Shown here one piece after another: positions 29,858 through 46,302 of a stretch of DNA of 64,000 nucleotides; position 1 is the stretch's first letter, and each line of letters starts with the position of its first letter. The DNA is from Hyalangium minutum. GTDB lineage: Bacteria; Myxococcota; Myxococcia; Myxococcales; Myxococcaceae. Where the stretch lies: contig NZ_JMCB01000003.1 in assembly GCF_000737315.1 (NCBI RefSeq), forward strand, positions 217,394 through 281,393, in the 5' to 3' direction. A model generated the notes under the pieces. It ran no database searches and was not told the origin of the DNA. It was given only the letters and a program-made list of their open reading frames with translations. Both the position numbers and the translations under genes were made by a program.

Positions 29858-30723
29858 GGCCCTCAAGCGGAATAGGCAGCTGGCTCGTGTTGGCCCTCGC
29901 GGTGCTGTCCGGGTGCGATGACTCGCGAACGGTGGCGAAGGTGGGGCGCACGGGCCTGACGGTGGAGGACGTGACGCAGCTGCGCGCCGCGCAGAGCCCG
30001 AGCGTCCGCGCCGCGCCGGAGCAGACGCTGGAGGTGCTGGTGGATCGCGCCCTGCTGGCCGAGGAGGCCCGGCGCCAGAAACTGCACGAGCAGCCCACGG
30101 TGAAGGCCCAGCTCGCGGCCGCCGAGCGGGAGCTCCTGGCGCATGCGGTGCTGGAGCGGGCGGTGGCTCCCAGCGTGACGGACGAGGCGCTGCGCGCGCG
30201 CTACGAGGCCGCGCGCTCCCGGCTGGAGCGCCGCGAGGTGCACGTGGCCCAGATCTTCGCGCGGATGCCCGAGGGCTCTGATGAGAAGACTCGGCGCCAG
30301 GCGCAGGTGCGCATCAACCAAGCCTATGCCCGGCTCGCGGGCGGAGAGCCTTTCGAGACCGTGGCGCGCGAGCTGTCCGAGGACTTGGTGAGCGCGCCCC
30401 AAGGAGGAGAGCTCGGCGTGGTTCGGGAGGGAGGAGTGGATCCAGCGTTCTTCGCCCAGGCCGTGGCGCTGGCCGCAGGCGCTTGGTCCAAGCCGTTCAT
30501 CACGCCCTTCGGCTGGCACGTGGTGAAGGCGCTTGAGGCGTCGAAGACGGTGGTGCCCTCCTTTGATGAGGCGAGAGGTGTGCTGGAGTCCGAGGCGCGC
30601 CAGGAGGCCCAGGCGAAGCTGATGGAGCGGCTGCGTCAGGAGATCTCGGTCCGTCGCTACCCGGAGCGGCTCAAGCTGGCAGAGGAGAAGAGCAAGCCCC
30701 AGGGCGAGGGGGAGGCGAGATGA
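29854..30723 (+). CDS. Peptidyl-prolyl cis-trans isomerase, parvulin (PpiC) type. It is a PrsA/SurA-like foldase lipoprotein.
   Basis: The ATG at 29854 overlaps the TGA of the giant gene (ATGA). The N-terminus MRPSSGIGSWLVLALAVLSGCDD is a signal peptide with an LSGC lipobox. The C-terminal parvulin signature is PFITPFGWHVVKALE. A SurA-like N-terminal chaperone region rich in A/E/R helices is present. Confidence 0.85.
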   Translation: MRPSSGIGSWLVLALAVLSGCDDSRTVAKVGRTGLTVEDVTQLRAAQSPSVRAAPEQTLEVLVDRALLAEEARRQKLHEQPTVKAQLAAAERELLAHAVLERAVAPSVTDEALRARYEAARSRLERREVHVAQIFARMPEGSDEKTRRQAQVRINQAYARLAGGEPFETVARELSEDLVSAPQGGELGVVREGGVDPAFFAQAVALAAGAWSKPFITPFGWHVVKALEASKTVVPSFDEARGVLESEARQEAQAKLMERLRQEISVRRYPERLKLAEEKSKPQGEGEAR

Positions 30724-33700
30724 TCCGCCGCGCTCCGCGATGGCTGTGGCTCGTGCTGGGGCTGGTGACACTGGCCACGGCGTGCGACCGGCGCTCCAGC
30801 GAGGAGCCCGCGTCCGCCGCGCCGCCCGCGCAGGCTGCTCAACAGGCACAGGCGCTGTCCGGAAGCACGTGCGACAGCGTGGCTCCCACCGGCATGGCGC
30901 CGGGGTGGAAGGTGGCGCCGATCCAGGCTGCGGGCCAGAACGTCGCGAGCACGATCTTCCCGGCGTCCGTCGGTGAGCGGGCGATCCTGATCCTGCAGGA
31001 GTCGGCGGAGGCGCTGAATCAGGAGTTCAAGACGGAGGCCTCCCTCAACGGTGTGGACTGGGTGGCCATCTCCCGGCAGAGGCCGCTGGCGGCGCGGGTG
31101 GTGCAGCTGAGTGCCTCGAACCGGCTGGAGCTGGAGACGAACGGAGGCGTGGCACGGACGTCCGTGGCGGCGCTGTCGCCGCTGCCGTGCGCGGCGGTGG
31201 AGGCACGCGTGACGCACGCGGGAGGCTCGGCCGCCACCGTGGAGACGCGCACCTTCACATGGCCCATGGGAGCAGGCCCGGCCCTGCTGGTGGTGGAGTC
31301 GGGCAGTGCGTCGCAGGTGACGGGGCGGGTGGTGCTGGGCAGCCTGACGGTGCAGGTGCCGGCCGCAGGCCAGCTCCCCGTGGTGGAGGTGGTGTCGCCG
31401 CAGGCGAGCAACACGCTGCGAGTCGAGGTGGGAGGCAGCGCGGGCGCGTGGGTCCGGGCAGTGGTGGTGGAGCCGGACATGTTGCCGCCCATCGTGAGCA
31501 TGGGGCAGCCCGCGGAGGGCGCGCAGCTGAACGCCTCGCCGGTGGAGGTCCAGGGCACCGCGGGAGCCGGGGCGGTGGCCGTGAAGGTGGGGGCGGTGGA
31601 CGCGGTGCTGTCGCAAGGCCAGTACACGGCGCAGGTGCCGCTGGTGGAGGGGCCCAACGCGCTGGTGGCCGAGGTGAGAGACCAGTGCGGCAACGTGGCG
31701 CGAGTGTGCCGGCCGGTGGTGCTGACGACGGCGCCGCCCACCGTTGTTATCGAGGGAGTTACTGACGGCCAGGTCTCGCGCGAGCCACTGCACCCCACGT
31801 GGACGGTGACGAGCAGCGGCCCGGTCACGGTGGAGGCGACGCTGGATGGCGCGCCCTTCGTCGGCGGCACGGCTGTAACGGCCGAGGGCTCGCACGAGCT
31901 GCGGGTCATGGTGCGGGACGCGGCGGGCCGGGAGGCGCAGGCGCAGGTGGGCTTCGCGATCGACACCACACCGCCGCGACTCACGCTGACAGGAGTGGAA
32001 GAGGGGGAGCGGCGCAATACTCCGGCGGTGCTCGGCTTCACGGTGGAGGAGGAGCACCCGGGCTCGGTGGAGGCCACCCTGGATGGGGCTCCCATGGCCT
32101 CGGGGGACACGGTCTCGGCGGAGGGCGCGCATGTGTGGACGGTGGCGGCCACGGACGCGGCGGGCAACCGGTCCGAGGTGCAGCGCCACTTCGTGGTGGA
32201 TGTGACGGCTCCCACGCTGGAGGTGCTCTCACCCGCGCCGGGCAGCTTCACCCAGGCGGGCTCCGTCGAGGTGGTGGTGGCGGCGGCGGATGACGGGCCG
32301 GTGGCGGGCGTGTGGCTGGGGAACGCGGAGCTGACGCTCGGCACGGACGGGAAGTACCGGAGCCTGGTGGTGTTGGAGGAGGGCAGCAACCTGCTGGTGC
32401 TGGTGGCTCGGGATGCGGCGGGCAACAGCGCGCAGAGCTCGCTGGCCGTGACGCGGGACTCCACGCCGCCCCAGCTCACCCTCACCACCCCGGCCGAGGG
32501 CGCGAAGGTGGCGGGGGACTCGGTGCAGGTGGAGGGACAGGCGCAGGACACCACGCCGCTCACGGTGCGCGTGGCGGGGATGACCGCGGCGGTCGCGGCG
32601 GATGGTCACTTCCAGCTCTCGGTGGCCGTGGCGCAGGGCCCTGTCTCCCTGGAGGTGGTGGCCACGGATGCGGCGGGGAACACCGCGCGTCTGGTGCGCG
32701 GCATCCGCGTCAACACCACGCCCCCGAGGTTGGATCTGACGGCACCGGCCTCGGGCACGGTCACCGAGGAGTCCTCCATCGAGGTGTCCGGCTTCGCGAG
32801 GGCGGCGGATCGCACGGACACGGTGCGGGTAGAGGTGGCGGGAACCGAGCACGGTGTGAGGGCGGATGGCAGCTTCTCGGTGCAGGTGCCGCTGGAGGTG
32901 GGCCTGAACACCGTGTCCGTCACGGCGGTGGATGGCTATGGCCTGCGCACCCCGCGCACCGTGCGGGTGGAGCGCCAGGGGCCTCAGGGGCCCGGTCCTG
33001 GAGATGGAGGCTCGGGAGACGGTTCGGGAGGCGGCACGGACGGAGGCTCGGGGGAAGACACCCCGGATGCAGGCAGCGGAGCGCCGGATGCGGGCTCGCC
33101 CGGTCCCGTGCCGGATGGCGGCATCCCGAGCGAGCCTCCGGTGCTGGTGCTGGCCTCGCCCCAGGAGAACAGCCTCTGGGGTGTGGAGCGGGTGTCGGTG
33201 CTGGGCCGTGTGGAGGGCGGAGACCTGCCGCTGCAGGTGACGGTGGATGGACTGCCAGCCGCGGTGACGGGGCGCCAGTTCTCCGCATCGGTGGCGCTGC
33301 CTGAAGGCTCCTCGATGCTGCACGTGCGCGCCGTGGACGCGCTGGGCCGGATCGCCGAGGTGCGGCGGCAGGTGAGGGTGGATCAGACACCGCCCTTCTT
33401 GGAAGTGACGCGGCCGGAGCAGCCGTCGACGACCGTGAGCGAATCCCCATACCTGGTGGAGGGCCTCGCGGGAGACGCGTACCTCGCGGGCGTCACGGTG
33501 AACGGGGCGCCGGTGATGGTGCTGGCCGGGCACTTCTCGTCCTCGGTGGCCCTGGTCGCGGGAGACAACACCGTGGAGGTGGAGGCGGTGGATCTCGCGG
33601 GTAACCGCTCGCGCGCCGTCCGGACCTTGCGGGTGGAAGCGCTGCCGCCTCAGCTGACCGTGCTGGAGCCGGTCGATGGCTCGGAGGCCACCGAGCCGGT

Positions 33701-36700
33701 GGTGAGGGTGACGGTGAAGGTCGAGTCCTCCGCGCCGCTCGACGAGGTGCGCATCGGCACGGGCATCGCGGCGAACCTGGGCTCGGGCCAGTACACGGCC
33801 CAGGTGCCGCTGGCGCTGGGAGAGAACGTCATCCCCGTGAGCGCGCGGGACACGCTGGGGATGACGGGCTCGGCCACCGTGCGCGTGCGCTACCGCGATC
33901 CGAGCACTGAGCCGTTGACCGTGACGGGGGTGGATCCCTCGGATCAGGCCACGGAGCTGGAGCCGGACACGCTGGTGAACGTGGCCTTCAACAAGGCCGT
34001 GAAGCCTGCGTCGGTGCGGGCGGGCTTCACGGTGAGCGTGGAAGGGCAGCCGCTGGCGGGCGGCTGGTCCGTCGCGCACGGAGCACAGATCGTCTCCTTC
34101 ATTGCGCGCGATCCGCTGCCGGAGGGCGCCACGCTGCAGGTACGGGTAGCGGGCGTGGAGCCGGTGCAGGGGCCGGGGATGCAGGGCGAGTTCCGCAGCA
34201 TGTTCACGGTGCGCCGTCCACTGACCCGGCTGCGCGGCCAGGTGGTGGACGCGCGGCGCGAGCCCGTGTCCGGCGTACGGGTGGAGGTGGAGGGCCAGGG
34301 CCTCTTCACGCGCACGGGAGCGGACGGCAACTGGGCCCTCTTTGGGGTGCAGCCGGGGCAGGTGGTGCTGCGCTACGAGGGAGGCGCCTCCTCGGAAGGG
34401 CAGGTCTTCCCCACGGTCCGCCGGCGGTTCGCCGTGGAGGCCGAGCGGGACAATGAGGAGTCCACCGTGGTGCTGACGCCCGTGGACGCCGAGTCCGCGG
34501 AGCCGGTGGATACCTCCCTGCCGCTGCACCTCACCTTTGGGGGGAGGCATGGGGCGCTGGAGGTGGACATCCCCGCGGGGGGGCTCATTCTCGAAGGAGG
34601 ATCGACGCGCGGCCTGGTGACGCTCACGCAGCTGCCGCTCCACTCGCTCCCGGTGCCCACGGAAGGCGCCTTGCGCCCGGTGGTGGTGTGGCAGCTCCAG
34701 CCCGCCGGGACGCGCCTGGTGCGGCCGGTGGTGCTCCGCCTGCCCAATCGGCTGAGTGCGCCGCCCGGCAGCCGGGCCGCGCTGTTCACGTATGATCCCG
34801 AGGCGCACCGGCTGCACATCGCGGGGCTGGCCACGCTCAGCGCGGATGGCACACAGCTCGTGTCGGACGGTGTGCTCGAGGCCGGCTCGCTGGAGTACTT
34901 CGGCTACCTGCCGCTGCCCGAGGAGTCCTCCGTCGCGCGGGCCGGGGCCGTCTCTCCCCGTGTGGCGAACCTGGGCCCGCTGCCCCGGCCACCGTCTGAC
35001 GGGCTCATCCGCCCGCTGACCCAGGGCTTCGGGCTGGATCCTGGCAGCGCGCTCGCCATCTGGGACTCCTACCAGCCCTTCATCGCTCCCGCCGCCGTCA
35101 TGGGGACGGTCCGAGGGCCTCGCGAGCAGGCGGTGGCCCTCGATCTCTCCTCGCCGAGCCTGGGCGAGTCGCGGCGGGTGGCGTTGGATTCGCAGCTGCG
35201 CTACCGGATGCCGCTCTCGGTTCAGGCCCGCTCGCTCTATCCCCTCTCGAGCAGTGGCCGGGATTCGCTCGTGCTGGCCCTCGAGGGCGTGGGCCCCGAG
35301 GGACAACGGCTGGGGCCGCCCAGCGGGGGCTCCTGGCGGCAGGAGAGCCCCCAGGGGCAGCGCGCGGAGCTGTCCACGCAGGTCGAACTCTCGCTCGGGA
35401 CCAGCTCGCTCTGGGCCACGGGCACCACGGCGCGCGGACGCAACGTACTCCGGCTGAACGCCGAGCTGTCCCTGGCGGATGGAGGCGTACCGGATGGGGG
35501 CGCGACCTCGGGATTGCTGCGCGTCCAGCGGGGGGATGGAGGCTCGGCAGGAGGGGAGGACAGTGAGGGACTGGTCCGCTTCGCGGGCATGCCTGTCCGG
35601 GTGACCGATGGCTGGCACGAAGGAGGGTCGATCTCCGGCCCGGCGGGCCGGTATGCCGCCTCGATCATCATGCTCCAGTCCTCCTGGATCCCTCCCGCGT
35701 CGGTCCTGGCCTGTGTTCGCCTGCCCATCGGATGGAACGTCCAGAGCTGGGTGGCGTGGGATGGCCGTGTCCGCACGCGCAAGGCCCCCTCCACCGCGGA
35801 GGAGTGCTCGGGCCCCTGGGAAGTCCTGGCCTGGCCTTCGCCCATCATCCCCGACATCGACGTGCTCGTGGATGTGCGGTGGTTGCACGGCAACATCACG
35901 TTCGTGGATCGGCAGGGCGAGCCGCTCCCGCCGCCGTGCAGCGACTTGGTGGTGCGCCAGGGCACCGAGGTGACCGGGCTGTCGCAAGACGCCGTGCGGA
36001 GCACGGAGGTTCACTTCTTCCGGGAGGATAATCTCTCCACCCCCATCGTCAGCTACGCCGTCGCGGATCCCGAGCAGTGTGACTCGTATCCGGGGGCCCC
36101 GCATGGCCGCTATGCCAAGGTCCGCTACGGTCCCTCCACCCTGAGCCGCGTGGCCTCGCGCCGCGACAGCCAGCGGTTGCTCCCGGGGGACCGGCTGGTG
36201 GTGTTCGCCGTCAACCATGCCACGGGCTATTCGGGCATGGAGGTCGTCACCGTTCCCTCCGTCAACCAATCCTCTCGCGCCGAGGATGGGAGCTGCCCGG
36301 CGGATGACGCCGCGGGCGGCCCGATGGCCGTGCAAGATGGGAGTCGCACGGTCTCCGTCTCTCGCTGCACGCTGCAGGATCTCGGCATCGAGGCGGATCT
36401 CAAGCTGTACCCGCCGGAGATCGACGTGCGTGTGGAGCGCCAGTCTCGGGCCGAGGGATCTTCCCAGGAGGCCCTGGAGCCCAGCCTTGTCCGCCATAAG
36501 GGCGCGGCCACGACGCGGGACAACTTCGTGAGCGTTGCCACGCACTGGCGCGTCCGGCGCCAGCCCGCGCGCTCGTGGGATCCGGGGGTGTTGCCTCCCG
36601 TGAATTCTTCCTGCGAGGGCGGGAGCCAGGCGGCTGGAAGCACCTGTGCGCCCCAGATCCTCCTGGACGAGGGCCCGCGAGGCACATGGGCGGAGCACTA

Positions 36701-39700
36701 CTGCGGGGAACTTCCCGAGCCGCGGACCCCCGAGCAGCAGGCCCTCTGCCTGAAGGATGACCGCGAGCTGGCGGAGGTTCCGGTGGGGGTACCGCCCCTG
36801 GCTGGGCGCGTGGTGCGCATCACTGGCTCGGCGGTGGAGGAGCCAGCGGTGGCGAGCTTCCACGTGGCCCCGGGCCGCTCCACGACGACCGTGCAGACAG
36901 CGCTGCGGCGAGTGGAGCGGGACGGGCGCGAGGTGGTGCTCAACAACCTGACGCGTGCCTACTACTACGTGCAGGTGGTGGGGCACCCCGTGCTCCCGCG
37001 GGATCGCAACAGCGATGGCACGCTGGATCCCTCGGAGGAGAACGCGCCGCCGCCCGACTTCGAGGATGATGAGGACGCCCCGGGGATTCCCGAGGGAGTC
37101 GTCACGCTGAAGAGCGTCTACCGGAGCGTGGAGCCCGAGGGGCGCATCGAGCGCTACGATCGAGCGCTCGAGCACGAGTTCCGGGTGATGGAAGTGGGCT
37201 CCTCCCGGGTCACGGCACGGACGGAGCGGGGCGAGGAGCGCCCGCTGCCCCAGCCGGGGCAGCCTCCGTCGTCTGCGGCCGCCAGCCCGGAGGACGTGGC
37301 CTATCAGTTCCTGCTCAATCTGCTGGAGCCAGAAGATCCGGGGCGGACGGGGCCGCCGAGCAGCCAGTACGTGCTGCGGCTGGGCACGGACTCCTTCGGC
37401 ATCGAGTGCCCCATCGAGCTGAACGCCTCGGCGGGCACGCTGCGTGGCACGTGCGAGGGCGAGTACCTGCCGGAGGTGCTGAGCGCGGGGGATGTGCTCT
37501 ACCTCGAGGTGTACTTGCGCGGTAACGCGGAGAACGTGCTGTACCGCTTCAACTTCGACGGTCTGTCCATGCGGGAGGACTACCTGGGGGCCTCCAGCCG
37601 GTTCACCGCCCACCGCGCGGTGGAGCAGCAGAATGGCAAGCCCGTGGAGGATCGGCCGATCTCCCGGCTGAACGAGGCGCACTTCTTCCTCTCGCCTCAC
37701 GAGCTCAGCTCAGGACGGATCCGGCTCTGCACCAACGCGGAGTGCTCGGGCGACGGGGCGGTCATCAAGGACGCCACCGTCTTGTGGACGGCGGCGGGCT
37801 CCTACGCGGTGAGCGAGCAGGCGACGGGCAGTGCTCCGGGGCGGCTGGTCCAGGAGGTCACGTCAGGCGCAGGGAACGCGCGCCACCTTCGGCTGGGACT
37901 GCCTGCCTCGGTGACGGCGATGCCGGGGATCGCGGCGGCGGGCGCGGGGATCTTCCTGGTCAAGGACAGCGAGTCTCCGCCACGAGCGCGGCAGGTGGAG
38001 CGCCTGGGAACGCCGAAGGGACGCTTCCAGGGGCTGAACGCGCAGGCGCCGGGCCAGGAGGCCGTGGCGGGCATCAATGTGGCGGATCTGCACCTGGCCC
38101 TGACGCACACGGACTTCGCGGTGCCGCAGCTCGCGGGAGAGGTCTCCTTCTCCAGGACCTATGCCAACCAGAACGATCTGCCCTCGCCCATGGGCGTGGG
38201 CTGGAGGCACGAGCTGGACGGCTTCGTGCTCGAGGAGAGCCTCGGCCGCTATGTCGTGAACCTGGGTGGGCAGGCCTGGGGCTTCATCCGGTGCACCACC
38301 GTGGATGAGGAAGCGCAGACCGCCAGCGGGTGCATGACGGACAAGACCCACGGCATGTCGCTGAAGGTTGACAGCGAGGGCGTCCAGCTCACCACGGAGC
38401 AGGGGAGTGTGTACCGGTTCAACCGGCCGGCGGTGAAGCGGGACCAGGAGGGCCGGCGCAAGTGGCTGCTGACCAAGTTCCACGATGGCCATGGCCGAGG
38501 CGAGCAGGACGGGTGGACGCACCTCACCTATGCCGAGGGCACCAACCGGCTCACGCAAGCGAAGCGCACGCCTGGGGAGCTGTCGCTGGAGCTCAAGTAC
38601 TGCGAGGACTTCTCCCGCGAGGACTGCGATGGCGTGGCGCCGGACGCGCCTGGCAACCTCAAGTTCCTGGCGCGCAGCGAGGGCTTCAAGCTGCTGAAGG
38701 GCGTGGTTCTCAAGAACAGCCAGGGCCAGGAGCTGCACATCGTGCGCTTCAAGCACGACCGGTGGGGCAACCTGCTGGAGGCCGAGCGCACCACGGATCC
38801 GCCCACGCAGAAGTGGAAGTACACCTACGCGCCCATTGCCGATGACGTGCCGTCCATGATGGCCTGGCGTGCCATCAATGAGCTGTCCGAGGCTCGCCTC
38901 GAGGTGGCTGGTCATCCCCAGTGGGTCGCCACCTACGGGCGCGGCGGCGCCGAGTGCTATGCGCACCTCGAGGCCTTCGAGTGTGTGAGCTCGGTGACGC
39001 AGACAGGCTTCATGGGCAACGTCCTTCAGGTGCAGGGCGAGGCGGGCCATCGCCAGCTCAAGCTCCCCACGGGGAACTCCGCGGAGGTGTCACTCAATGA
39101 GTATGGGAACGTCACCTCCTCGGCGTCGGAGGGGCAGGCGGCGCGGCGGCTGACGTGGCCCAGCTCCCAGCGCGGGGGCGAGGTGCGGCTGGAGAAGTCA
39201 GTCTCTCCGAGCGGCCGGACCCTGCGCTATGGCACGGATCACCAGCTGCGCCTGGACGAGGTGAAGCTGGAGGGGAGCTCGGACGTGGTGGGGCTCGAAG
39301 CGGGGGCGCTCGTCTCCGTGTTGGCACGCGATGCCCGGGGCTTGCCTACCTCGGGGAAGCTGTCCACGGCCAATGGTCCGGCCGAGTGGTCCATGCCCCG
39401 CTCTCAGTCGGGGGACGTGCTGGGCCTCTCACTGGGGGGCACGCAGCTCTTCTCGCGGGTCACGGACGAGGAGGGCCGGATCACCTCGGAGCGGGATGCG
39501 CTGGGCAATACGACCACGTTCACGTTTGGCGCGTTGGGGTTGCCTGTCAGGATCCAGGTGTCCTCGGACTCCGCGACGTCGGGGCTCGTCCGCTACACGC
39601 TGGTGCTGGAGTACGACGCCTATGGGCGTCTGATCCGCCGCTTCAATGAGACGACGGGCGAAGCGGAGTCCTGGCGTTACGACGGCCAGGGCAACATGCT

Positions 39701-42700
39701 CGAGCACACGCTCACGGGGGAGCCGTCCGAACGGTGGACGTACACCTATACGTACGGCGATCAGCGGCTCACCGTGGTGGAGCGCCTGGAAGGCACGGCC
39801 TACACCCGCACCGCCCTCTTCGAGCAGGGGCTGCTGAAGAGCGAGCAGCTCAGCTACGGCACGGGCAACGCGTCACGTGCCTATGAGTACGAGGGCGGGC
39901 GGCTCAAGAAGAAGACAGACGAGCTGTCAGTCACCTGGGAATACACCTACGACAGCGCGGGCCGGCTGAAGGTGGTGAAAGCGAATGGCCGGACCGTGGA
40001 GTCCTACGGGCTGGATGAGGACGGCATCCTCATCTCCACCACGGACCGCGAAGGGCACACCACCCAGATCGGCAACGACTCGCTGGGGAGACCCGTCTCG
40101 TGGACCTATGAGGATGGGTACAAGGAGGAGGTGCGGCGGGATGCCCAGGGCGCCATCGTCTGGGAGAAGAAAATGTCTCCCGGCGCGGACAGAGCCCACG
40201 TCTTCGCTCAAGAGGTGGACGCGCTCGGACAGGTTCTGAGCCGCCGGAGCGCGGAAAATGGGAGCGGAGTGGAGATCGTCTCCACCTATGACGCCGCGGG
40301 GAGAGTGCGGACGCGAGAGGATCGGGGCAGGGGCCTGAACGAGTCCTTCGAGTATGGTGACGTGCTCGGAAGGCTGACGCGCTATCAGCGGACCGTGGCG
40401 TCCGCCGCGGGGAGCCAGAACTGGATCGAGACCCGTCAATACGTGGATGAAGGGGGCCGCACGGAGCTCCGCATCCTGCGCCAGATCGACACGGGTTTAG
40501 GGCCGCGGCAAGAGAACCAGGTCCTGGTGCTGGATGCGCTGGGGCGGGTGCTGAAGGACCAGCGTCTGGGTGCGGGGGTCTTCGAGTACACCTACGACGC
40601 GCGAGGCAACGTGCTGGAGCGTCGGCACTCCGTGCTGGGAACCACGTCGTATACCTACGACGGGTTGGGGAACCTGCTGTCGATGACGGAGCCGGGGGGC
40701 GTCACCACCACGTACACGGTGGATGCGGCAGGCCGGGTGCTCACGCAGGAGGGGCCTCACGATCAGGAGCGGTGGACGTTCACCTACGATCTGTTCGACC
40801 GGCCGCTGACGCAGGTGCTGGCGCAGGCCGGGAGCTCGCCGCAGGCTGCGTGGAGCTTCGAGTATCCGGGGAATGGGATCGTCATTGAGACGGATCCTCT
40901 GAGTATCGCGACGACCCGGCGTTTCAACTCGCGCGAGCTGCTGCTCTCGGAGGAGCGAGGGAGCCAGACGGCGGAGTACGCCTACGATGGAACGTGGCCT
41001 CGCCTGCACCTCATCTCCCATGAAGGTTCGGAGCGGAAGCTGACGCGGAGCTTCGATGACCTCGGGCGGCCGCTCCAGCAGGTGGAGTTCTGGAAACAGG
41101 GGGACCACTCCTATACGTACAGCACGACCACGGCTTGGACGGGCAGGCGCGGGACTCGCCAGGAGCGGTGGGAGGCCACGGACGCGAGCGTCCGGACGCT
41201 CACGGCGACGATCCGGGTGGACGGGCTGGGGAACCTCATCGAGCAGGAGCAGGGGGGCCTGACGGACGCTTGGGCCTACGATGCGGCCGGACTGTTGGCA
41301 CGTGAGGCACTGGCGGGGCGTCCGGAAAAGCGCTTCTTCTACGAGCAGGATCGGCTCGTCCGGATGGAGAACGGCTCGGAGACGACGCTGTACGAGTATG
41401 ACGCCGCGGGCCGGCAGTGGAAGGAGACGGATCCTTCGGGGCGCGAGCGCACGCGGGTCTACAACGCACAGGGCCTGGTGGCGAGCGAGCGCTTCGGAGC
41501 AGGGGAGACGCTGGAGTCCGCGTACACTTACGATCGAGGCGGGGGCCTCCGGACGCTGACGCGTGGCGGGGCACAGTGGAACTTCACGCATGGGCCTCGG
41601 GGGGAACTCCAGGCCGTCGAACTTCCGGGCGGGCTGGGGACCTTCACCTATCAATACGATGCCTTGCTGCAGCTCAAGGGGGTGACGCCTCCAGAGGGCG
41701 GGGGAGCAGCGGCACAGACCTTCGCGTATGACAACTGGGGCCGGCAGCTGCGCCGGACCCGAGGCTCCAGCGTCTGGTCCACGGCCTGGCAGGGCGGGTT
41801 GAGCACCACGAGCGACCCGAATGGCGACGTGGTGGAGCAGCTCTACGACGGCCGCGGCCGCGTCGTGCGTGAGCGCTTCGCTCCCGGGAACAGCAGCCGG
41901 CCCTTCCATGATCTGACAGCGGTGACGTACGCCTATGACGGGCTCGACCAGCTGCTGTTGGCGCAGGAGAGCCGCATCTCGGGAGCGGTCTCCAATGTGT
42001 ATGACTATGACGGGCGGAGCCGGCTGATCTCGATGCGGCGCGGCAGCGAGGAGATCTCATACACATACACGGAGAGCGGGCAGAAGCGGACGGTCACGTC
42101 TCCGTCCGGCACGTTGCGCTACGAATACGACGCGCAGGATCGGGTGCGGCGCATCGAGAGCAGCCAGGGGCCGGTGGTGGCGGTGGGCTGGGAGCCGGGA
42201 GGTCTGCTCTCGGAGGTCAGTGGCAACGGGGTGGTGGAGCGGTACGCGTATTGGGGCCATGGGCTCATCCGCTCCATCGCTTCGCAGTGGGACGGCCCCT
42301 CGGCGGGCACGCTGCGGTACGAGTACGGCTACGATGTGCGCGGCAACCGCCTGGAAGAGCGCTACACGGCACCGGGGGCCACGGCGTTCGAGGTGACGCA
42401 ATTCGGGTACGACGCGGCGGACCGGCTGACCGGGGTGCGCTACCCCACAGGCGAGGCCGAACTCTACCTCCTGGCAGCTGACGGCTCGCGCCTGGAGGAG
42501 AAGCACCTGCAGGGGTACTCAGGGGGACTGACTCCCCAGGCGCTGGCCAACGCCACGAATGCCACCCAGCACTGGCGGTACGCGTATGACACCGCGGGAG
42601 GGCTGCAACGCATTGATGACGTGTTGACGGGGGGCGTGGAAGCCCAGGTCACCACGGACGCGGGAGGCCGCGTCGTCGCGGAGATGCGAGGTGGCACCAC

Positions 42701-44768
42701 GCGGCAGTATGGCTGGGACGCAGGAGGGCGGCTCGCTTCGACCAAGCGGATCACCGCGCAGGAGACGGTCGAAGCCTCATATGCGTATGGCTTTGACGGA
42801 CTGCGGCGGACTCGGACCGTGAACGGAGTGAGCACCCGGTATGTGTGGGGTGCGAACGAAGAGCTGCTCGAAGAAGGGCCGGCTGTGGGAAGTCGGCTGT
42901 TGTATGCCCAGGCAGGCTTCGGAGCGGTGGCGGCGGGAGGAGAGCGGCTGCTGCGGGATGCGCTGGGCAGTGTCGTGGGGCGCGTGGGTCCGTCCACGGA
43001 GCTGTCTCGCTATGGCGCGTGGGGCGCACTCCGGCAGGGAGCGCCGCCCCAGGGCATGGAACCGTCCCTGGCCTACGCGGGGCAATCTCTCGACAGCGAA
43101 ACAGGGCTGAGCTACGCGCAGCAGCGTTGGTACAGCTCGGAGACCGGGCGTTTCCTCTCGGAGGATCCCCTGGGAGCGGCGGCGTACCTCTCGACCCCGA
43201 CCGAGCTGAACCCCTGGCTCTATGCGAGGTCCAATCCCCTGACGTACCTGGATCCCTCGGGTTTGTGGTCCTGGTCTCAGGCTGGAGTGGGGCTGGCCAG
43301 AGCTGGCAGGAAAGCCTGGCATGAAACGGCCAATGCTTTCTCGTGGGCCGCTCGTCCTCTGAACGGCGCGTTCGGAGTGTCCTCGGGACACTACGACAAG
43401 AAGGGACGATGGAGGCTTCGGGATACAGGCACCTTCAAAGAGGAGGCGAAGAAGCAGCTCAAGCAGATCAAGGAGGTCGCGGAGTACGTGAAGGACCACC
43501 CGGTGGAGACGGTGACTGGGCTGGTGGTGGAGCCGGCGAAGGCGATCGGTACCGGGATTGCGGCCTGTGTCGTCGGCGCGACGACGCAGGGCGTGGTGGG
43601 CGACGAGGCGAGCCGTGACTGTGGCGAGATGCTCCCGAAGGCGATCGGATCGGTAGCGGGCACTTTCTCCGGGGCAGGCGCGGCGATCCGGACCGCAGGA
43701 CGCGTCCGGCGTGCCGCGGCAGATATGCGTACGGCCATGAGGAGGAGCGTCTCGGCCGCTGATGACATGGCCAGGACGAGGCTGGGCCCGCAGCGCGGAT
43801 GGCCTGACGAGGCCCCGAAGCCCGCGAGGGCCGGCGCCAATGACTGCGCGGGTGGGGTCTGCCAACGCCCAGGACAATGCTTCGTGGCGGGCACTCCCGT
43901 CCTGACCCAGGAAGGTCTCAAGCCCATTGAGCAGATTGTCGAAGGGGAACTGGTCTGGTCACGTAACGAGGAGACGGGCCAATCGGATTGGCGGCCCGTG
44001 GTGCGGACGTTCGTGACGCCGGACCAGCCAGTGCTGAGACTGGAGCTGACGGACGAGGCCGGTCAGCGCACCGTGCTGGGAGTGACTGGGGAGCACCCGT
44101 TCTGGGTGAAAGACCTGGGATGGGTGGGAGCGTCGTCGCTGCTCCCCGGTCAGCAGGTGGCCAGCGCGCACGGAGGATGGCTCAAGGTGGGGGCCGCGAC
44201 GTGGGAGCAGGCGCGCGCCACCGTCTTCAACTTCGAAGTGGAGGAATTCCACACCTACTTCGTGGGCGACGTCGGCGCGTGGGTCCACAACAGCTGTCAG
44301 CAGCCATGGTTGTTCGCGGCGGGACAGGGGGATGTGTACACGCTCCTGGAGAAATTCAGGAAGACTCACACGTTAGGGAAAGCGGAGACCTTTGCGCTGG
44401 CAATGCTGGAGAGTGGTGAGCGTGCATTTGGAATCAACTCGGGTTTGTTCAAGGGCAGGGATTCCCGGATTCATGGCTTTGAAATGTTGAGGGAGCACGG
44501 GTTGCTGAAGAAAGCCACCATATACAGTCAGGAGCCCTTCCTGCTGCACGCAGAGGCTCTGGCGGTCATTCGTCTGTGGGAGCGGCTGCAGGGCAAAGAC
44601 CTTTCACTGATTCGGCTGTACGTCGACAACCCAACCTGCAAGCTGTGTCTGAGCGGCCTTCCCAGACTGCAAGTGGCGCTTGGGATCAAACGCTTGGAGA
44701 TTTATGGCCCGGGAACCATTCACATCAGCAAGCCGTCTCTCCACCCCATTGACCTTCTCAAGAATTGA
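30720..44768 (+). CDS. RHS/YD-repeat polymorphic toxin lipoprotein (4,682 aa). Layout: signal/lipobox, Ig-like domains, carboxypeptidase-regulatory-like plug, about 1,200 aa of unknown function, YD-repeat shell, RHS core (DPSGL), glycine-zipper linker, Hint domain, C-terminal deaminase-like toxin.
   Basis: The ATG at 30720 overlaps the PPIase TGA (ATGA) and is preceded by GGGGGAGG. The N-terminus MIRRAPRWLWLVLGLVTLATACD is a lipoprotein signal. Many YD repeats are present (YTYDARGNVLER, YEYDAAGRQW, YAYDGLDQL...). The RHS-associated core reads RWYSSETGRFLSEDPLG...NPWLYARSNPLTYLDPSGL. It ends at TGA 44766-44768. Confidence 0.9.
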   Translation: MIRRAPRWLWLVLGLVTLATACDRRSSEEPASAAPPAQAAQQAQALSGSTCDSVAPTGMAPGWKVAPIQAAGQNVASTIFPASVGERAILILQESAEALNQEFKTEASLNGVDWVAISRQRPLAARVVQLSASNRLELETNGGVARTSVAALSPLPCAAVEARVTHAGGSAATVETRTFTWPMGAGPALLVVESGSASQVTGRVVLGSLTVQVPAAGQLPVVEVVSPQASNTLRVEVGGSAGAWVRAVVVEPDMLPPIVSMGQPAEGAQLNASPVEVQGTAGAGAVAVKVGAVDAVLSQGQYTAQVPLVEGPNALVAEVRDQCGNVARVCRPVVLTTAPPTVVIEGVTDGQVSREPLHPTWTVTSSGPVTVEATLDGAPFVGGTAVTAEGSHELRVMVRDAAGREAQAQVGFAIDTTPPRLTLTGVEEGERRNTPAVLGFTVEEEHPGSVEATLDGAPMASGDTVSAEGAHVWTVAATDAAGNRSEVQRHFVVDVTAPTLEVLSPAPGSFTQAGSVEVVVAAADDGPVAGVWLGNAELTLGTDGKYRSLVVLEEGSNLLVLVARDAAGNSAQSSLAVTRDSTPPQLTLTTPAEGAKVAGDSVQVEGQAQDTTPLTVRVAGMTAAVAADGHFQLSVAVAQGPVSLEVVATDAAGNTARLVRGIRVNTTPPRLDLTAPASGTVTEESSIEVSGFARAADRTDTVRVEVAGTEHGVRADGSFSVQVPLEVGLNTVSVTAVDGYGLRTPRTVRVERQGPQGPGPGDGGSGDGSGGGTDGGSGEDTPDAGSGAPDAGSPGPVPDGGIPSEPPVLVLASPQENSLWGVERVSVLGRVEGGDLPLQVTVDGLPAAVTGRQFSASVALPEGSSMLHVRAVDALGRIAEVRRQVRVDQTPPFLEVTRPEQPSTTVSESPYLVEGLAGDAYLAGVTVNGAPVMVLAGHFSSSVALVAGDNTVEVEAVDLAGNRSRAVRTLRVEALPPQLTVLEPVDGSEATEPVVRVTVKVESSAPLDEVRIGTGIAANLGSGQYTAQVPLALGENVIPVSARDTLGMTGSATVRVRYRDPSTEPLTVTGVDPSDQATELEPDTLVNVAFNKAVKPASVRAGFTVSVEGQPLAGGWSVAHGAQIVSFIARDPLPEGATLQVRVAGVEPVQGPGMQGEFRSMFTVRRPLTRLRGQVVDARREPVSGVRVEVEGQGLFTRTGADGNWALFGVQPGQVVLRYEGGASSEGQVFPTVRRRFAVEAERDNEESTVVLTPVDAESAEPVDTSLPLHLTFGGRHGALEVDIPAGGLILEGGSTRGLVTLTQLPLHSLPVPTEGALRPVVVWQLQPAGTRLVRPVVLRLPNRLSAPPGSRAALFTYDPEAHRLHIAGLATLSADGTQLVSDGVLEAGSLEYFGYLPLPEESSVARAGAVSPRVANLGPLPRPPSDGLIRPLTQGFGLDPGSALAIWDSYQPFIAPAAVMGTVRGPREQAVALDLSSPSLGESRRVALDSQLRYRMPLSVQARSLYPLSSSGRDSLVLALEGVGPEGQRLGPPSGGSWRQESPQGQRAELSTQVELSLGTSSLWATGTTARGRNVLRLNAELSLADGGVPDGGATSGLLRVQRGDGGSAGGEDSEGLVRFAGMPVRVTDGWHEGGSISGPAGRYAASIIMLQSSWIPPASVLACVRLPIGWNVQSWVAWDGRVRTRKAPSTAEECSGPWEVLAWPSPIIPDIDVLVDVRWLHGNITFVDRQGEPLPPPCSDLVVRQGTEVTGLSQDAVRSTEVHFFREDNLSTPIVSYAVADPEQCDSYPGAPHGRYAKVRYGPSTLSRVASRRDSQRLLPGDRLVVFAVNHATGYSGMEVVTVPSVNQSSRAEDGSCPADDAAGGPMAVQDGSRTVSVSRCTLQDLGIEADLKLYPPEIDVRVERQSRAEGSSQEALEPSLVRHKGAATTRDNFVSVATHWRVRRQPARSWDPGVLPPVNSSCEGGSQAAGSTCAPQILLDEGPRGTWAEHYCGELPEPRTPEQQALCLKDDRELAEVPVGVPPLAGRVVRITGSAVEEPAVASFHVAPGRSTTTVQTALRRVERDGREVVLNNLTRAYYYVQVVGHPVLPRDRNSDGTLDPSEENAPPPDFEDDEDAPGIPEGVVTLKSVYRSVEPEGRIERYDRALEHEFRVMEVGSSRVTARTERGEERPLPQPGQPPSSAAASPEDVAYQFLLNLLEPEDPGRTGPPSSQYVLRLGTDSFGIECPIELNASAGTLRGTCEGEYLPEVLSAGDVLYLEVYLRGNAENVLYRFNFDGLSMREDYLGASSRFTAHRAVEQQNGKPVEDRPISRLNEAHFFLSPHELSSGRIRLCTNAECSGDGAVIKDATVLWTAAGSYAVSEQATGSAPGRLVQEVTSGAGNARHLRLGLPASVTAMPGIAAAGAGIFLVKDSESPPRARQVERLGTPKGRFQGLNAQAPGQEAVAGINVADLHLALTHTDFAVPQLAGEVSFSRTYANQNDLPSPMGVGWRHELDGFVLEESLGRYVVNLGGQAWGFIRCTTVDEEAQTASGCMTDKTHGMSLKVDSEGVQLTTEQGSVYRFNRPAVKRDQEGRRKWLLTKFHDGHGRGEQDGWTHLTYAEGTNRLTQAKRTPGELSLELKYCEDFSREDCDGVAPDAPGNLKFLARSEGFKLLKGVVLKNSQGQELHIVRFKHDRWGNLLEAERTTDPPTQKWKYTYAPIADDVPSMMAWRAINELSEARLEVAGHPQWVATYGRGGAECYAHLEAFECVSSVTQTGFMGNVLQVQGEAGHRQLKLPTGNSAEVSLNEYGNVTSSASEGQAARRLTWPSSQRGGEVRLEKSVSPSGRTLRYGTDHQLRLDEVKLEGSSDVVGLEAGALVSVLARDARGLPTSGKLSTANGPAEWSMPRSQSGDVLGLSLGGTQLFSRVTDEEGRITSERDALGNTTTFTFGALGLPVRIQVSSDSATSGLVRYTLVLEYDAYGRLIRRFNETTGEAESWRYDGQGNMLEHTLTGEPSERWTYTYTYGDQRLTVVERLEGTAYTRTALFEQGLLKSEQLSYGTGNASRAYEYEGGRLKKKTDELSVTWEYTYDSAGRLKVVKANGRTVESYGLDEDGILISTTDREGHTTQIGNDSLGRPVSWTYEDGYKEEVRRDAQGAIVWEKKMSPGADRAHVFAQEVDALGQVLSRRSAENGSGVEIVSTYDAAGRVRTREDRGRGLNESFEYGDVLGRLTRYQRTVASAAGSQNWIETRQYVDEGGRTELRILRQIDTGLGPRQENQVLVLDALGRVLKDQRLGAGVFEYTYDARGNVLERRHSVLGTTSYTYDGLGNLLSMTEPGGVTTTYTVDAAGRVLTQEGPHDQERWTFTYDLFDRPLTQVLAQAGSSPQAAWSFEYPGNGIVIETDPLSIATTRRFNSRELLLSEERGSQTAEYAYDGTWPRLHLISHEGSERKLTRSFDDLGRPLQQVEFWKQGDHSYTYSTTTAWTGRRGTRQERWEATDASVRTLTATIRVDGLGNLIEQEQGGLTDAWAYDAAGLLAREALAGRPEKRFFYEQDRLVRMENGSETTLYEYDAAGRQWKETDPSGRERTRVYNAQGLVASERFGAGETLESAYTYDRGGGLRTLTRGGAQWNFTHGPRGELQAVELPGGLGTFTYQYDALLQLKGVTPPEGGGAAAQTFAYDNWGRQLRRTRGSSVWSTAWQGGLSTTSDPNGDVVEQLYDGRGRVVRERFAPGNSSRPFHDLTAVTYAYDGLDQLLLAQESRISGAVSNVYDYDGRSRLISMRRGSEEISYTYTESGQKRTVTSPSGTLRYEYDAQDRVRRIESSQGPVVAVGWEPGGLLSEVSGNGVVERYAYWGHGLIRSIASQWDGPSAGTLRYEYGYDVRGNRLEERYTAPGATAFEVTQFGYDAADRLTGVRYPTGEAELYLLAADGSRLEEKHLQGYSGGLTPQALANATNATQHWRYAYDTAGGLQRIDDVLTGGVEAQVTTDAGGRVVAEMRGGTTRQYGWDAGGRLASTKRITAQETVEASYAYGFDGLRRTRTVNGVSTRYVWGANEELLEEGPAVGSRLLYAQAGFGAVAAGGERLLRDALGSVVGRVGPSTELSRYGAWGALRQGAPPQGMEPSLAYAGQSLDSETGLSYAQQRWYSSETGRFLSEDPLGAAAYLSTPTELNPWLYARSNPLTYLDPSGLWSWSQAGVGLARAGRKAWHETANAFSWAARPLNGAFGVSSGHYDKKGRWRLRDTGTFKEEAKKQLKQIKEVAEYVKDHPVETVTGLVVEPAKAIGTGIAACVVGATTQGVVGDEASRDCGEMLPKAIGSVAGTFSGAGAAIRTAGRVRRAAADMRTAMRRSVSAADDMARTRLGPQRGWPDEAPKPARAGANDCAGGVCQRPGQCFVAGTPVLTQEGLKPIEQIVEGELVWSRNEETGQSDWRPVVRTFVTPDQPVLRLELTDEAGQRTVLGVTGEHPFWVKDLGWVGASSLLPGQQVASAHGGWLKVGAATWEQARATVFNFEVEEFHTYFVGDVGAWVHNSCQQPWLFAAGQGDVYTLLEKFRKTHTLGKAETFALAMLESGERAFGINSGLFKGRDSRIHGFEMLREHGLLKKATIYSQEPFLLHAEALAVIRLWERLQGKDLSLIRLYVDNPTCKLCLSGLPRLQVALGIKRLEIYGPGTIHISKPSLHPIDLLKN
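43878..44297 (+). other. Hint (Hedgehog/intein-like, pre-toxin HINT) domain inside the RHS protein.
   Basis: It starts CFVAGTPVLTQEGLKPIEQIV and ends VGDVGAWVHNSC. This is the canonical Cys-1 ... His-Asn-(Cys/Ser) intein/Hint boundary arrangement, about 140 aa long. Confidence 0.7.
44298..44765 (+). other. C-terminal toxin domain of the RHS protein; candidate nucleic-acid deaminase (CDA fold).
   Basis: LLHAEALAV (HAE at 44547-44555) is followed about 27 aa later by NPTCKLC (PCxxC at 44631-44648). This is the zinc-binding H[AC]E ... PCxxC signature of the cytidine/nucleotide deaminase superfamily. It sits at the extreme C-terminus after RHS core and Hint, the typical toxin position. Confidence 0.6.
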
Positions 44769-44780
44769 CCCGGCATATAG

Positions 44781-46247
44781 CTATTGCGCCTGCGGATTCT
44801 GAGTCGTGGGCGGGCGCGCTCGTTCCCAAGCAGGGTCGTAGCACTCCTCCTGCCACTGGTAGGTATCGTCGCTGCATGGCGGTCTCTTGTCGGCCACGCG
44901 CACCCAGCAGCCGCCATGAATGATTTTCTCCCAGTCTCGCTTGCACGGGGGGCGGCGCTGGCCCGGGAGCGGTTGCTTGGGCATGTCCAGGGAGATGGAT
45001 CTGGCCTCAGAGGGAATCGATTGAACTTCCATCCGAGTGGTGAGCGCATCGTCTCCCAATCCGCGGGTACCGGCATCTGGCTCCATGCCCGCATCCAGCG
45101 CTTCAGCACGCGCCGTCTCAGACGGCTTTGCGCTCCACTCGGGAGCCATCCAGCAGGGCCCCACCACCGCCAGAGACATCGTGAGCAGCGCGAGGAGATT
45201 CCTCCAAGGGACGGGCCGAACTTGCTGCCTCGCCTGGAGAGTTCCTGCTTTGTGCTCAGTAGCTTTGGCTGGGGCCGTCTTCGCATCGACGGGCCTCGCG
45301 GGCCCGGCTTGAGTCTGTACCGCAGGCTTCACTGAAGCCCAGAGAGGAACATCCGCTGCGGAACCTAGATGCTCCGCCGAGGTTTCCGCTGCTTGTGCCA
45401 ACTCACTTGCCGTCCCGCGAGCCTCAGGCTCCGCCGCGAGCAGCCGCTCCACCAGCGCCGAGAGCTCAGGCACCACTCGGGGGTTGAGTTCATGCGTGCA
45501 TTGGCGTCGCGCAACTCCACCCTGGATTTGTTTCTTGAGGTCTTCAGGCTCCGTGCCAGGAGGGGGATAGATCCGAGTCAATAACCGGTACAGCGTCACG
45601 CCCAGCGCATAGAGATCGTCCGCCGGGGTGGCGTGGTAGCGCGCTCCCGGCGTGCTCCAGTGTTGCCACTCGAAGCGTAGCGCCTCGGGGCTGCGGTACT
45701 CAGGCGTGTTGGGAGGCAGCACCCGATGGGTGAGTGGGGGAGCGCCCTTCCACGTGCCCGAACCAAAATCCGTGAGCACCGCCCGGCCCTCGGGCTCCAC
45801 AAGAATGTTGTCGCCCTTCAGGTCGCGGTGCAGGCATTCCCCGCGGTGCAACACCTCCAACCCCCATGCCAGCTGGGCCACCACCCGGAGCACTTCGCGG
45901 CTGGTGGGAGTGTGCATCCGCGCCCACTCGTACAGCCGCTGGCCCCGGATCCACTCCATCACCACATAGGGATGCCGGACTCCAGGCTCGGCCTCCCACC
46001 AACCTTGGTCGATGAGTCGAGGCACGGCCGGGTGGCGGGTGCGTCTGAGCAACTCCACCTCCCGTTCGAAGCGCGGGTCATGAGGGAACACCGCCATCTT
46101 CAGTGCCACGGGCGGGGAGCCCGGGTCGTCGGCGCGCCGGGCGCGGAACACGGCGCCGTAGCTGCCCCGGCCGGCATAGCCCTCGATGCGCCAGGGGCCG
46201 ACCAGATCTCCGATGTTCAGCGAGTCAGGTGTCCTCGTGCCCGTCAT
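44781..46247 (-). CDS. Membrane-anchored Ser/Thr protein kinase (Hanks type) with a C-terminal Cys-rich extracytoplasmic domain.
   Basis: Kinase motifs are present: GRGSYGAVF...ALK (gly-loop and VAIK-like), HRDLKGDNILV (catalytic loop), DFGSG, PEYRSPE (APE-like). A TM helix LLALLTMSLAVVGPCW is followed by a 5-Cys tail. Confidence 0.9.
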   Translation of the reverse strand: MTGTRTPDSLNIGDLVGPWRIEGYAGRGSYGAVFRARRADDPGSPPVALKMAVFPHDPRFEREVELLRRTRHPAVPRLIDQGWWEAEPGVRHPYVVMEWIRGQRLYEWARMHTPTSREVLRVVAQLAWGLEVLHRGECLHRDLKGDNILVEPEGRAVLTDFGSGTWKGAPPLTHRVLPPNTPEYRSPEALRFEWQHWSTPGARYHATPADDLYALGVTLYRLLTRIYPPPGTEPEDLKKQIQGGVARRQCTHELNPRVVPELSALVERLLAAEPEARGTASELAQAAETSAEHLGSAADVPLWASVKPAVQTQAGPARPVDAKTAPAKATEHKAGTLQARQQVRPVPWRNLLALLTMSLAVVGPCWMAPEWSAKPSETARAEALDAGMEPDAGTRGLGDDALTTRMEVQSIPSEARSISLDMPKQPLPGQRRPPCKRDWEKIIHGGCWVRVADKRPPCSDDTYQWQEECYDPAWERARPPTTQNPQAQ

Positions 46248-46302
46248 GGCACCGGAGACTACCCAAGGGGTCGCTCGCCGTCATGCCGCTCTTTCAGGTA
46301 GG

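Follow-up and report, generated by a model that had tools for sequence, protein, structure and literature searches.

A giant, probably lipid-anchored RHS toxin with a predicted cytosine deaminase tip in the myxobacterium Hyalangium minutum

What kind of protein is encoded by a 14-kb RHS gene in the myxobacterium Hyalangium minutum, what would it deliver, and how would that cargo be set free? The gene lies in a stretch of 64,000 nucleotides (contig NZ_JMCB01000003.1 of assembly GCF_000737315.1, positions 217,394 to 281,393; hereafter the window, to whose numbering all coordinates refer) and occupies positions 30720-44768 of the + strand. It is a single uninterrupted open reading frame (ORF) of 4,682 aa with an ATG start and a stop codon at 44766-44768 (+, ORF reading), and its GC content at third codon positions (GC3) stays within the coding type, from 0.89 at the 5' end through 0.85 in the shell to 0.70 over the final 470 nt. 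The encoded protein runs from a lipobox through a stalk of at least ten immunoglobulin (Ig)-like domains, a transthyretin (TTR)-like domain and a Cys-rich beta region of 1,240 aa to a YD shell of ~1,720 aa that is closed by an RHS core. An initial annotation of this DNA, made from the letters alone, had described a lipobox-bearing RHS cocoon protein with an Ig-like stalk; our reading of the lipobox and searches with Pfam and NCBIfam profiles bear this out, RHS and HINT profiles both matching above their cutoffs, and given the profile E-values the domain assignments are not a chance pattern. We consider it likely that the gene product is a polymorphic RHS toxin of ~500 kDa with a deaminase tip, exported by Sec and signal peptidase II and anchored by a lipid, in this member of the Cystobacterineae.

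The YD/RHS shell (38094-43010, +; aa 2459-4097) opens with a DUF6531 domain at aa 2459-2503, which scores above its cutoff, and continues with repeats recognised by Pfam RHS_repeat PF05593 (E 1.3e-46, nine stretches) and by YD_repeat_2x TIGR01643 (E 5e-36). Its start at 38094 agrees with the ~38.07 kb at which the initial annotation had placed it. The RHS-associated core follows directly (43011-43265, +; aa 4098-4182; TIGR03696, 64.5 bits, cutoff 32.5), and in it the motifs DPLG (D4149) and PLTYLDPSGL (D4178) can be read directly, the DPSGL falling at exactly 43251-43265, as had been stated before. Aspartyl self-cleavage is predicted after L4182, a position placed by analogy with BiTLP and TcC. 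The two DPxG motifs (43164-43265, +) lie 29 residues apart, counted from D4149 to D4178; the spacing quoted for other RHS proteins and for bacterial teneurin-like proteins (TLPs) is the shorter DPxG-X18-DPxG.

A cut after L4182 would leave a cargo of 500 aa and 54.4 kDa, reaching from W4183 to the C-terminus and made up of a conserved first part, a linker with a HINT domain, and a deaminase. The PT-HINT self-cleaving domain (43878-44291, +; C4387 to N4524) is matched by PF07591 at aa 4394-4525 with 82.1 bits against a cutoff of 27.7, and its functional residues are directly legible: C4387 (nt 43878), TGEH at 4456, the pair H4523-N4524, and Ser4525 at +1. With N4524 (nt 44289-44291) as the catalytic Asn, the tip set free would be S4525-N4682, of 158 aa. 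The earlier HINT span of 43878-44297 thus had the right start and an end that took in two extra residues (S and C); the payload of roughly 155 aa was rightly seen as small and terminal, its exact length being 158 aa. All motifs of the succession that had been described, an intact RHS aspartyl site, then an intact HINT, then a small terminal toxin, are present. What does not hold is the presentation of this double self-processing as a new inference, as the RHS-HINT-toxin layout is already tabulated: a HINT just before the toxin is listed for Sec-exported RHS proteins, including those with MafB19-clade deaminases (PMC3239186 Table 1, PMC3482391), and YD-shell teneurin-like proteins are recorded with 'HINT toxin' domains at the C-terminus (PMC13018210). 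HINT domains accompany toxins exported by the Sec route, by type V and type VII secretion systems and by Tc complexes, and never those of a type VI secretion system (T6SS) (PMC3482391), which fits the signal peptide of the window protein.

The first part of the cargo (43266-43778, +; aa 4183-4353, 171 aa) shares long identical runs with its Hyalangium orthologue, the remaining cargo being unrelated. It found no match in Pfam, and its hydropathy profile reveals two Gly/Ala-rich hydrophobic stretches, AIGTGIAACVVGATT and AIGSVAGTFSGAGAAI. We therefore infer a candidate membrane-entry module: a conserved Gly-rich segment placed between the RHS cut site and a swappable cassette offers a concrete candidate for that step of toxin delivery.

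The tip itself (44292-44768, +; S4525-N4682, 158 aa, 17.8 kDa) is, by its predicted activity, a DNA/RNA cytosine deaminase of the MafB19 clade. In this clade strand 2 ends in Asn and strand 3 in Val, helix 2 carries HxE and helix 3 +xxCxxC, and strand 4 begins with Gly (PMC3239186). The corresponding signature in the tip reads FGIN(47), H84-A-E86, YV(109)D, NPTC(114)KLC(117) and LG(129)IK, with H4610-A-E4612 and C4640-x-x-C4643 as the catalytic residues in whole-protein numbering; H84, E86, C114, C117, N47 and V109 are invariant in both alignments that we made, while G129 is strictly conserved in one of them and almost so in the second. A test for the deaminase fold was likewise positive. Against Pfam MafB19-deam PF14437 it scores 22.4 bits alone and 16.1 bits within the whole protein (cutoff 27). 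A word-indexed search with the tip among 5.8 billion proteins returned nothing, and a sequence comparison with the PDB gave only a spurious match. An exhaustive HMMER search recovered 61 cluster representatives, in which the match is nearly always C-terminal on an unrelated scaffold (an eCIS-core protein, a cadherin/Ig protein or a short HINT-bearing fragment). Among the relatives scanned, MafB19-deam scored above threshold (30-50 bits), PF14437 being found in all 12 of the 12 profile-search hits; one relative (P0035) carries a HINT-MafB19 pair on a cadherin/Ig scaffold. A metagenome scan with a three-sequence alignment of the toxin gave two loci. The tip shares 10-17% sequence identity with DddA, DddB and SsdA, which are T6SS-delivered and belong to other deaminase clades (SCP1.201-like, DYW-like), DddB being the tip of a YD-repeat protein. 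The window tip would belong, as a strongly diverged member, to a clade of deaminases that has been mined for DNA base editors and sequencing enzymes.

Comparison with orthologues from three or four myxobacterial metagenome bins shows that the body of the protein is kept while the tips differ (PD-(D/E)xK-like, JAB-like). The best orthologue, locus L003 from a Hyalangium metagenome bin, is 78.6% identical at the DNA level over nt 34271-43469 (blastn); beyond 43469 no similarity remains until 46319, a position within a YhgA/Rpn-type gene. In its cargo the first ~170 residues past the RHS cut are shared and are followed by an unrelated tip of ~195 aa that has no HINT domain and carries a D...ExK motif. 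In a third orthologue (L001, ENA contig_126814) a JAB/MPN-like reading frame with an HTHP...S..D motif stands at the position of the tip (20620-21162). Unrelated tips on a conserved body are the mark of a classic polymorphic toxin. The L001 locus (6800-21200 on a 60-kb contig) is broken into many short frames by frameshifts, which would make it a pseudogene unless they are an artefact of long-read assembly.

The part that varies between the window and the Hyalangium orthologue (43470-46318) comprises the distal cargo, the HINT, the deaminase and a convergent kinase gene. GC3 within it is 0.70 for the toxin and 0.74 for the kinase, against 0.85-0.89 in the gene body. To judge from these comparisons, the HINT and the deaminase arrived together, the tip having been swapped as a cassette by recombination. 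The conserved right border is the YhgA/Rpn-type (Transposase_31) gene at 46186-47517 (+), which contains an (EGKA)n repeat; its counterpart in L003 (11590-12451) is frameshifted. Rpn proteins promote recombination.

At its N-terminus the protein bears a signal peptide with the lipobox LATAC (30720-30785, +; direct reading), in which Cys22 (nt 30783-30785) follows an Arg-rich n-region and a hydrophobic h-region and is predicted to be the lipidated first mature residue. The lipobox was judged by eye against the standard pattern; two orthologues (P0002 and P0004) have canonical lipoboxes in the same position (LWAAGC and ALAAGC). That such a toxin is a lipoprotein had been singled out as notable, but lipoprotein toxins with a YD shell have already been described in Myxococcota (PMC13018210). 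The stalk that follows (30786-33869, +) is an array of Ig-like domains comprising seven Glucodextran_B matches (E 7e-73), Big_13 and Big_7, which together reach ~aa 1050 (~nt 33.87 kb) in Pfam. The 'DTTPP.L.L' boundaries of these domains are directly readable in the translation, a Gly/Asp/Ser-rich linker near aa 760-800 breaks the array, and aa 23-258 gave no family match in Pfam. A Big_5 (SbsA-type) Ig-like domain comes next (33906-34193, +; aa 1063-1158; Pfam 28.9 bits, cutoff 23.6), so that the succession of Ig-like domains to about 33.9 kb and then an SbsA-like Ig domain, as first annotated, is confirmed by Pfam. The length of the stalk varies: an insert that separates the lipobox from the first shared Ig domain (30786-31735, ~310 mature residues), most of it without a family match, is present in L001 and missing in L002 and L005, where the Ig array stands directly after the lipobox (blastn gap from 30686 to 31735).

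Beyond the stalk, a TTR-like domain of the CarboxypepD_reg type is likely at 34230-34379 (+; aa 1171-1220, probably extending to ~aa 1250), with a score below the family threshold (27.9 bits, Pfam cutoff 32.3; 15 bits with the TTR_TEN1-4 model). The carboxypeptidase-regulatory-like domain had been reported at this same place. To call its fold the plug of teneurin YD shells, however, is a mistake, for in teneurins, as in bacterial TLPs, it is the FN-plug that closes the shell, with the TTR domain upstream of it (PMC13018210). The middle region (34380-38093, +; aa 1221-2458) had been noted as about 1,200 aa without recognisable motifs, and indeed its ~1,240 aa gave no match in Pfam, NCBIfam or the PDB (sequence and profile search). 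It is beta-rich and lineage-specific and contains 14 cysteines, which fits a location outside the cytoplasm. Four homologues were found among 5.8 billion proteins and three loci among 185,579 species genomes, all of them in Cystobacterineae metagenome bins. An AlphaFold2 model of aa 1262-2461, built from five sequences, had a mean predicted local distance difference test score (pLDDT) of 37 and was unusable.

Does this layout make the window protein a true bacterial TLP, whose middle region hides diverged TIP, FN-plug and NHL domains and whose shell is plug-sealed and exposed at the surface? TLPs as described by Raoelijaona et al. (Nat Commun 2026, PMC13018210) combine a signal for signal peptidase II (SPII; in Myxococcota) with BIG, TTR, TIP, FN-plug and NHL domains, a YD shell, DPxG motifs, a polymorphic C-terminus and an immunity gene. 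Their NHL domain is a six-bladed beta-propeller set between plug and shell. The flanks found here come in the same order, namely an SPII lipobox, bacterial Ig domains (BIG), a TTR-like domain, a YD shell whose core carries DPxG...DPxG, and a C-terminal toxin that is polymorphic, and in neither case does a dedicated secretion machine lie nearby. TLPs are found in more than 20% of Myxococcota, and their C-terminal domains include HINT types (PMC13018210). H. minutum itself has one, and the window shell aligns to the shell of that TLP with E 6e-18 and 22.7% identity (BLASTP); there are also weak co-linear BLASTP matches, not significant, to its TTR domain (E 1.3) and to part of its TIP domain (E 3.4).

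The centre does not follow suit. FN-plug and NHL, two of the three domains that define the superfold (FN-plug, NHL and YD shell), are not detectable here, and an unrelated Cys-rich region of 1,240 aa is found instead. The protein has no Pfam match to NHL or to the teneurin shell/NHL models, and no NHL domain appears among the precomputed domains of its homologues. Compared with the TIP, FN-plug and NHL domains of the H. minutum TLP, the middle region gave no significant match by BLASTP or hhalign: BLASTP found neither FN-plug nor NHL, though NHL blades are repetitive and easily seen, and hhalign aligned the profile of the middle region with the TTR-TIP-FN-plug-NHL segment at a probability of 0.5%, the profile being thin (effective number of sequences, Neff, 1.3). 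Conserved peptides of the middle region were absent from the published TLP sequences that we examined, a weak test as the file is a gapped alignment. With a poor AlphaFold2 model and a profile of Neff 1.3, the FN-plug and NHL negatives are absence of evidence rather than proof. The best PDB sequence matches of the shell are T6SS-type Rhs shells (7q97, 8h8a and 8qja, E ~1e-15), not teneurins. Size differs as well, since the shell of ~1,720 aa is roughly double the ~900 aa of published TLP shells (the hidden Markov model for them spans ~880 aa), and the cargo of 500 aa and 54 kDa compares with ~15 kDa. Finally, an immunity gene stands downstream in almost all TLPs and not here. As the flanks match the TLP layout and the defining centre does not, we have not filed the protein as a TLP and regard that assignment as unlikely.

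The second question concerns the target, and it turns on the absence of a linked immunity gene. Where such a gene would be expected, the 3' end of a convergent Ser/Thr protein kinase gene (44781-46247, -; Pkinase, Pfam E 2.5e-31) lies 12 nt past the toxin stop. No terminator-like hairpin is evident in this gap of 12 nt. The kinase contains a membrane segment and ends in a small domain rich in Cys (PCKRDWEKIIHGGCW...PC...CY). Of the deaminase's relatives, three had readable surroundings, and in each of them a co-oriented frame of 138-146 aa starts at most 10 nt past the stop; the one that was scanned is weakly Imm1-like, and the frame of a second relative aligns with it. Using the downstream frames of two relatives as queries, which are weakly related immunity sequences, we searched the six-frame translation of the 64-kb window (tblastn and phmmer) and found no Imm1-like sequence; nor did Pfam reveal an immunity family among ten further reading frames of the window. 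A + strand ORF at 44784-45335 was rejected as an immunity gene, being the Arg-rich antisense of the kinase gene. A kinase also lies near the deaminase in a Planctomycete locus (L008), and a link between kinase and deaminase drawn from it was rejected as coincidence because the similarity of the two kinases, 28%, does not go beyond what is generic for kinase domains. In the Hyalangium orthologue L003, a co-oriented gene directly after the toxin gene (10144-11577, +) encodes a 477-aa signal-peptide protein with C-terminal TPR repeats, which, if it were an immunity protein, would be of an unusual type. Payload family, tip polymorphism and missing immunity gene had gone unnamed in the initial annotation; all three were found here.

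One way to account for the missing gene is that the toxin is aimed at prey or other non-kin, export and encapsulation alone protecting the producer. Myxobacteria are predators, no co-oriented gene follows the toxin, and the window scans found neither an Imm1-like sequence nor an immunity family; giant toxin-like proteins that lack immunity genes are moreover thought to be probably directed at other organisms (PMC3482391). Yet immunity genes can lie elsewhere than in the 64 kb searched with those two queries, and the kinase gene may simply have displaced the immunity gene or become inserted before it. Encapsulation need not protect either: in the TLP study the shell gave E. coli no protection from chimeric cargos (PMC13018210). 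There is also no report so far of myxobacterial Rhs proteins in predation (PMC10433427). We hold a prey-directed toxin protected in this way to be improbable.

If the product is a lipid-anchored polymorphic toxin, as we favour, its action can be sketched in steps that are drawn from knowledge of the family, while the parts, motifs, tip exchange and operon coupling are read from the sequence. The catalytic motifs of RHS core, HINT and deaminase are all intact. On folding of the shell, the core aspartates D4149 and D4178 would cleave the chain behind L4182, as happens in TcC, T6SS Rhs proteins and BiTLP, leaving a free cargo of 500 aa and 54 kDa inside the oversized shell. The lipid anchor and the Ig stalk would display this shell outside the cell, and the cargo would be released on contact with a neighbouring bacterium. 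The Gly-rich hydrophobic aa 4183-4353 may then help the cargo across the target membrane, after which the HINT (C4387, TGEH, HN4524) would cut itself off and free the 158-aa deaminase, which, through H4610/E4612/C4640/C4643, would deaminate cytosines in the nucleic acid of the target.

Several points weigh against this reading. The tip alone falls short of the Pfam threshold (22.4 against 27 bits), and the '+' position of its +xxCxxC motif is Asn and not a basic residue. No immunity gene lies directly downstream, where the convergent kinase gene is found. The cargo of 54 kDa far exceeds the ~15 kDa typical of TLPs, whose published cavity measures ~44,000 cubic angstroms; by our own rough scaling (volume ~ area^1.5), we estimate that a 1,720-aa shell could enclose ~100,000 cubic angstroms, enough for 54 kDa only with a compact cargo. 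The anchoring membrane is likewise uncertain. In M. xanthus, Lys at +2 retains lipoproteins in the inner membrane and Ala at +7 directs them to the matrix; the window protein has Asp at +2 and Glu at +7, whereas the orthologues P0002 and P0004 carry Lys at +2, the inner-membrane signal. Further weak points are the passage of a 500-kDa lipoprotein across the outer membrane and the protection of the producer and its siblings.

These sorting residues also bear on the proposal of the initial annotation that the protein is an RHS-class analogue of SitA, passed on by TraA/TraB-dependent outer-membrane exchange, which we judge to be very unlikely. A lipobox is present, outer-membrane exchange transfers outer-membrane lipoproteins, and Asp at +2 with Glu at +7 matches neither the inner-membrane nor the matrix signal of M. 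xanthus, leaving the outer membrane as the default. Like SitA (PMC5562445), this is a polymorphic toxin of a myxobacterium. But the large Rhs toxins of M. xanthus, Rhs4 and Rhs5, kill with both outer-membrane exchange and T6SS inactivated, which is how they were discovered (PMC10433427), and the +2 Lys of the orthologues would be incompatible with transfer by exchange. No SitA similarity or family match was found, no sitI-like gene lies downstream, and traA and traB are absent from the window ORFs that were listed and scanned. The window protein is moreover ~10 times larger than SitA (PMC5562445) and has an RHS shell; with its Ig stalk and 500 kDa it is built like a surface adhesin, unlike the small SitA toxins. 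The SitA analogy is thus unsupported.

Least credible of all is that the protein is mainly an adhesin or matrix protein with a decaying, non-functional toxin remnant at its end, for which the cargo very large for its shell, the absent immunity gene, the frameshifts of the orthologous contig L001 and operon partners consisting of a giant adhesin-like protein and a folding helper might be cited, and against which stand an uninterrupted 14-kb frame of coding-type GC3 throughout, the intact catalytic residues of RHS core, HINT and deaminase, and the fact that the L001 frameshifts may be assembly errors. Two further assignments were rejected outright: a T6SS Rhs effector, given the signal peptide with lipobox, the lack of a PAAR match and the presence of a HINT (and no T6SS families were found among the window proteins scanned); and a TcB/TcC cocoon of the Tc type, given the single chain, the lack of SpvB, TcdB and TcA matches and the absence of a TcA among the window proteins scanned.

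The RHS gene is the last of three, preceded by a gene for a giant Ig-repeat protein and one for a lipoprotein peptidyl-prolyl isomerase (PPIase). Judging by the ATGA overlaps at both junctions (PPIase stop with RHS start, and giant-gene stop with PPIase start at 29854-29857), this operon is translationally coupled. The PPIase, of the PpiC/SurA type (29854-30723, +; Pfam Rotamase E 1e-18), is itself a lipoprotein (LSGC followed by DD; N-terminus MRPSSGIGSWLVLALAVLSGC, then DD) and, like the RHS protein, has the unusual Asp at +2; possibly it serves the two giant beta-rich proteins encoded on either side as a dedicated folding helper. The giant reading frame (2-29857, +) encodes more than 9,950 aa and is open at the 5' edge of the window; its product contains Big_7 (nine or more copies), TIG/IPT, Big_5 and LVIVD repeats and, near the C-terminus, Cys/Asp-rich 'DDDGDG' motifs. 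Related contigs keep the order giant gene-PPIase-RHS; synteny of the PPIase gene is conserved in L002, L001 and L005, and that of the giant gene was seen with L002. Conservation of an operon that joins the toxin gene to those of a giant Ig-repeat protein and a lipoprotein PPIase points to helpers for export or display. Elsewhere in the window (55366-57081, -), a secreted protein of 571 aa with about eight 'ELW.TDGT..GT' repeats and no Pfam match looks like a member of an uncharacterised propeller-type repeat family.

How does the protein compare with characterised toxins? WapA of Bacillus subtilis has a signal peptide, a surface-attached RHS shell and a polymorphic tip that targets nucleic acids in contact-dependent competition. 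It is a wall-anchored protein of a Gram-positive bacterium with the adjacent immunity gene WapI, whereas the window gene encodes a lipoprotein and its bacterium has two membranes. Its nearest characterised relatives in function, compared by description only, are Rhs4 and Rhs5 of M. xanthus, proteins of ~4,000 aa with a signal peptide that act in kin discrimination independently of T6SS and of outer-membrane exchange (PMC10433427, a review). Like the window protein, these two are myxobacterial, measure ~4,000 aa or more and have a signal sequence, RHS repeats and a polymorphic C-terminus; they are thought to be located at the surface and to act on contact. Rhs4 and Rhs5 lie on Mx-alpha prophage-like elements with immunity genes, whereas the window gene belongs to a conserved chromosomal operon and its middle region has no M. 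xanthus homologue. With the RHS-HINT-deaminase toxins already tabulated (PMC3239186, PMC3482391), the protein shares the RHS repeats, a HINT directly before a MafB19-clade deaminase and export by Sec rather than T6SS. It differs from them in that neither the SUFU/SUKH partners of the clade nor the Imm1-like frames of the relatives were found beside the gene, that the tip is so diverged that it scores below the Pfam threshold, and that the extra conserved 171-aa Gly-rich module stands between RHS cut and HINT.

Proteins of this kind are therefore already known: polymorphic toxins of myxobacteria that are exported, anchored by a lipid and built with a YD shell, and whose deaminase is freed by a HINT. 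What is new or unusual is the rare middle module of 1,240 aa in the place where teneurins have FN-plug and NHL, the double-size shell with its three-part cargo of 54 kDa, the conservation of its operon with genes for a giant Ig-repeat protein and a lipoprotein PPIase, and the absence of a linked immunity gene. These features could be taken to mark a separate, undescribed class of giant lipoprotein RHS toxins, with an oversized shell for the three-part cargo, a Cys-rich gate or receptor-binder of its own, a helper operon and, as the lack of a linked immunity gene would indicate, use against prey rather than kin, a suggestion we make tentatively and think unlikely.

An RHS deaminase toxin does not overturn current views, and the weight of the finding is modest: the exported, lipid-anchored myxobacterial toxins with a YD shell, a group recognised only recently, gain a well-delimited member. 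With a shell and a cargo roughly two and three times the size of the solved examples, it is a useful test case for the capacity of YD shells and, through its Gly-rich module and its operon partners, for the membrane entry, export and display of such toxins.

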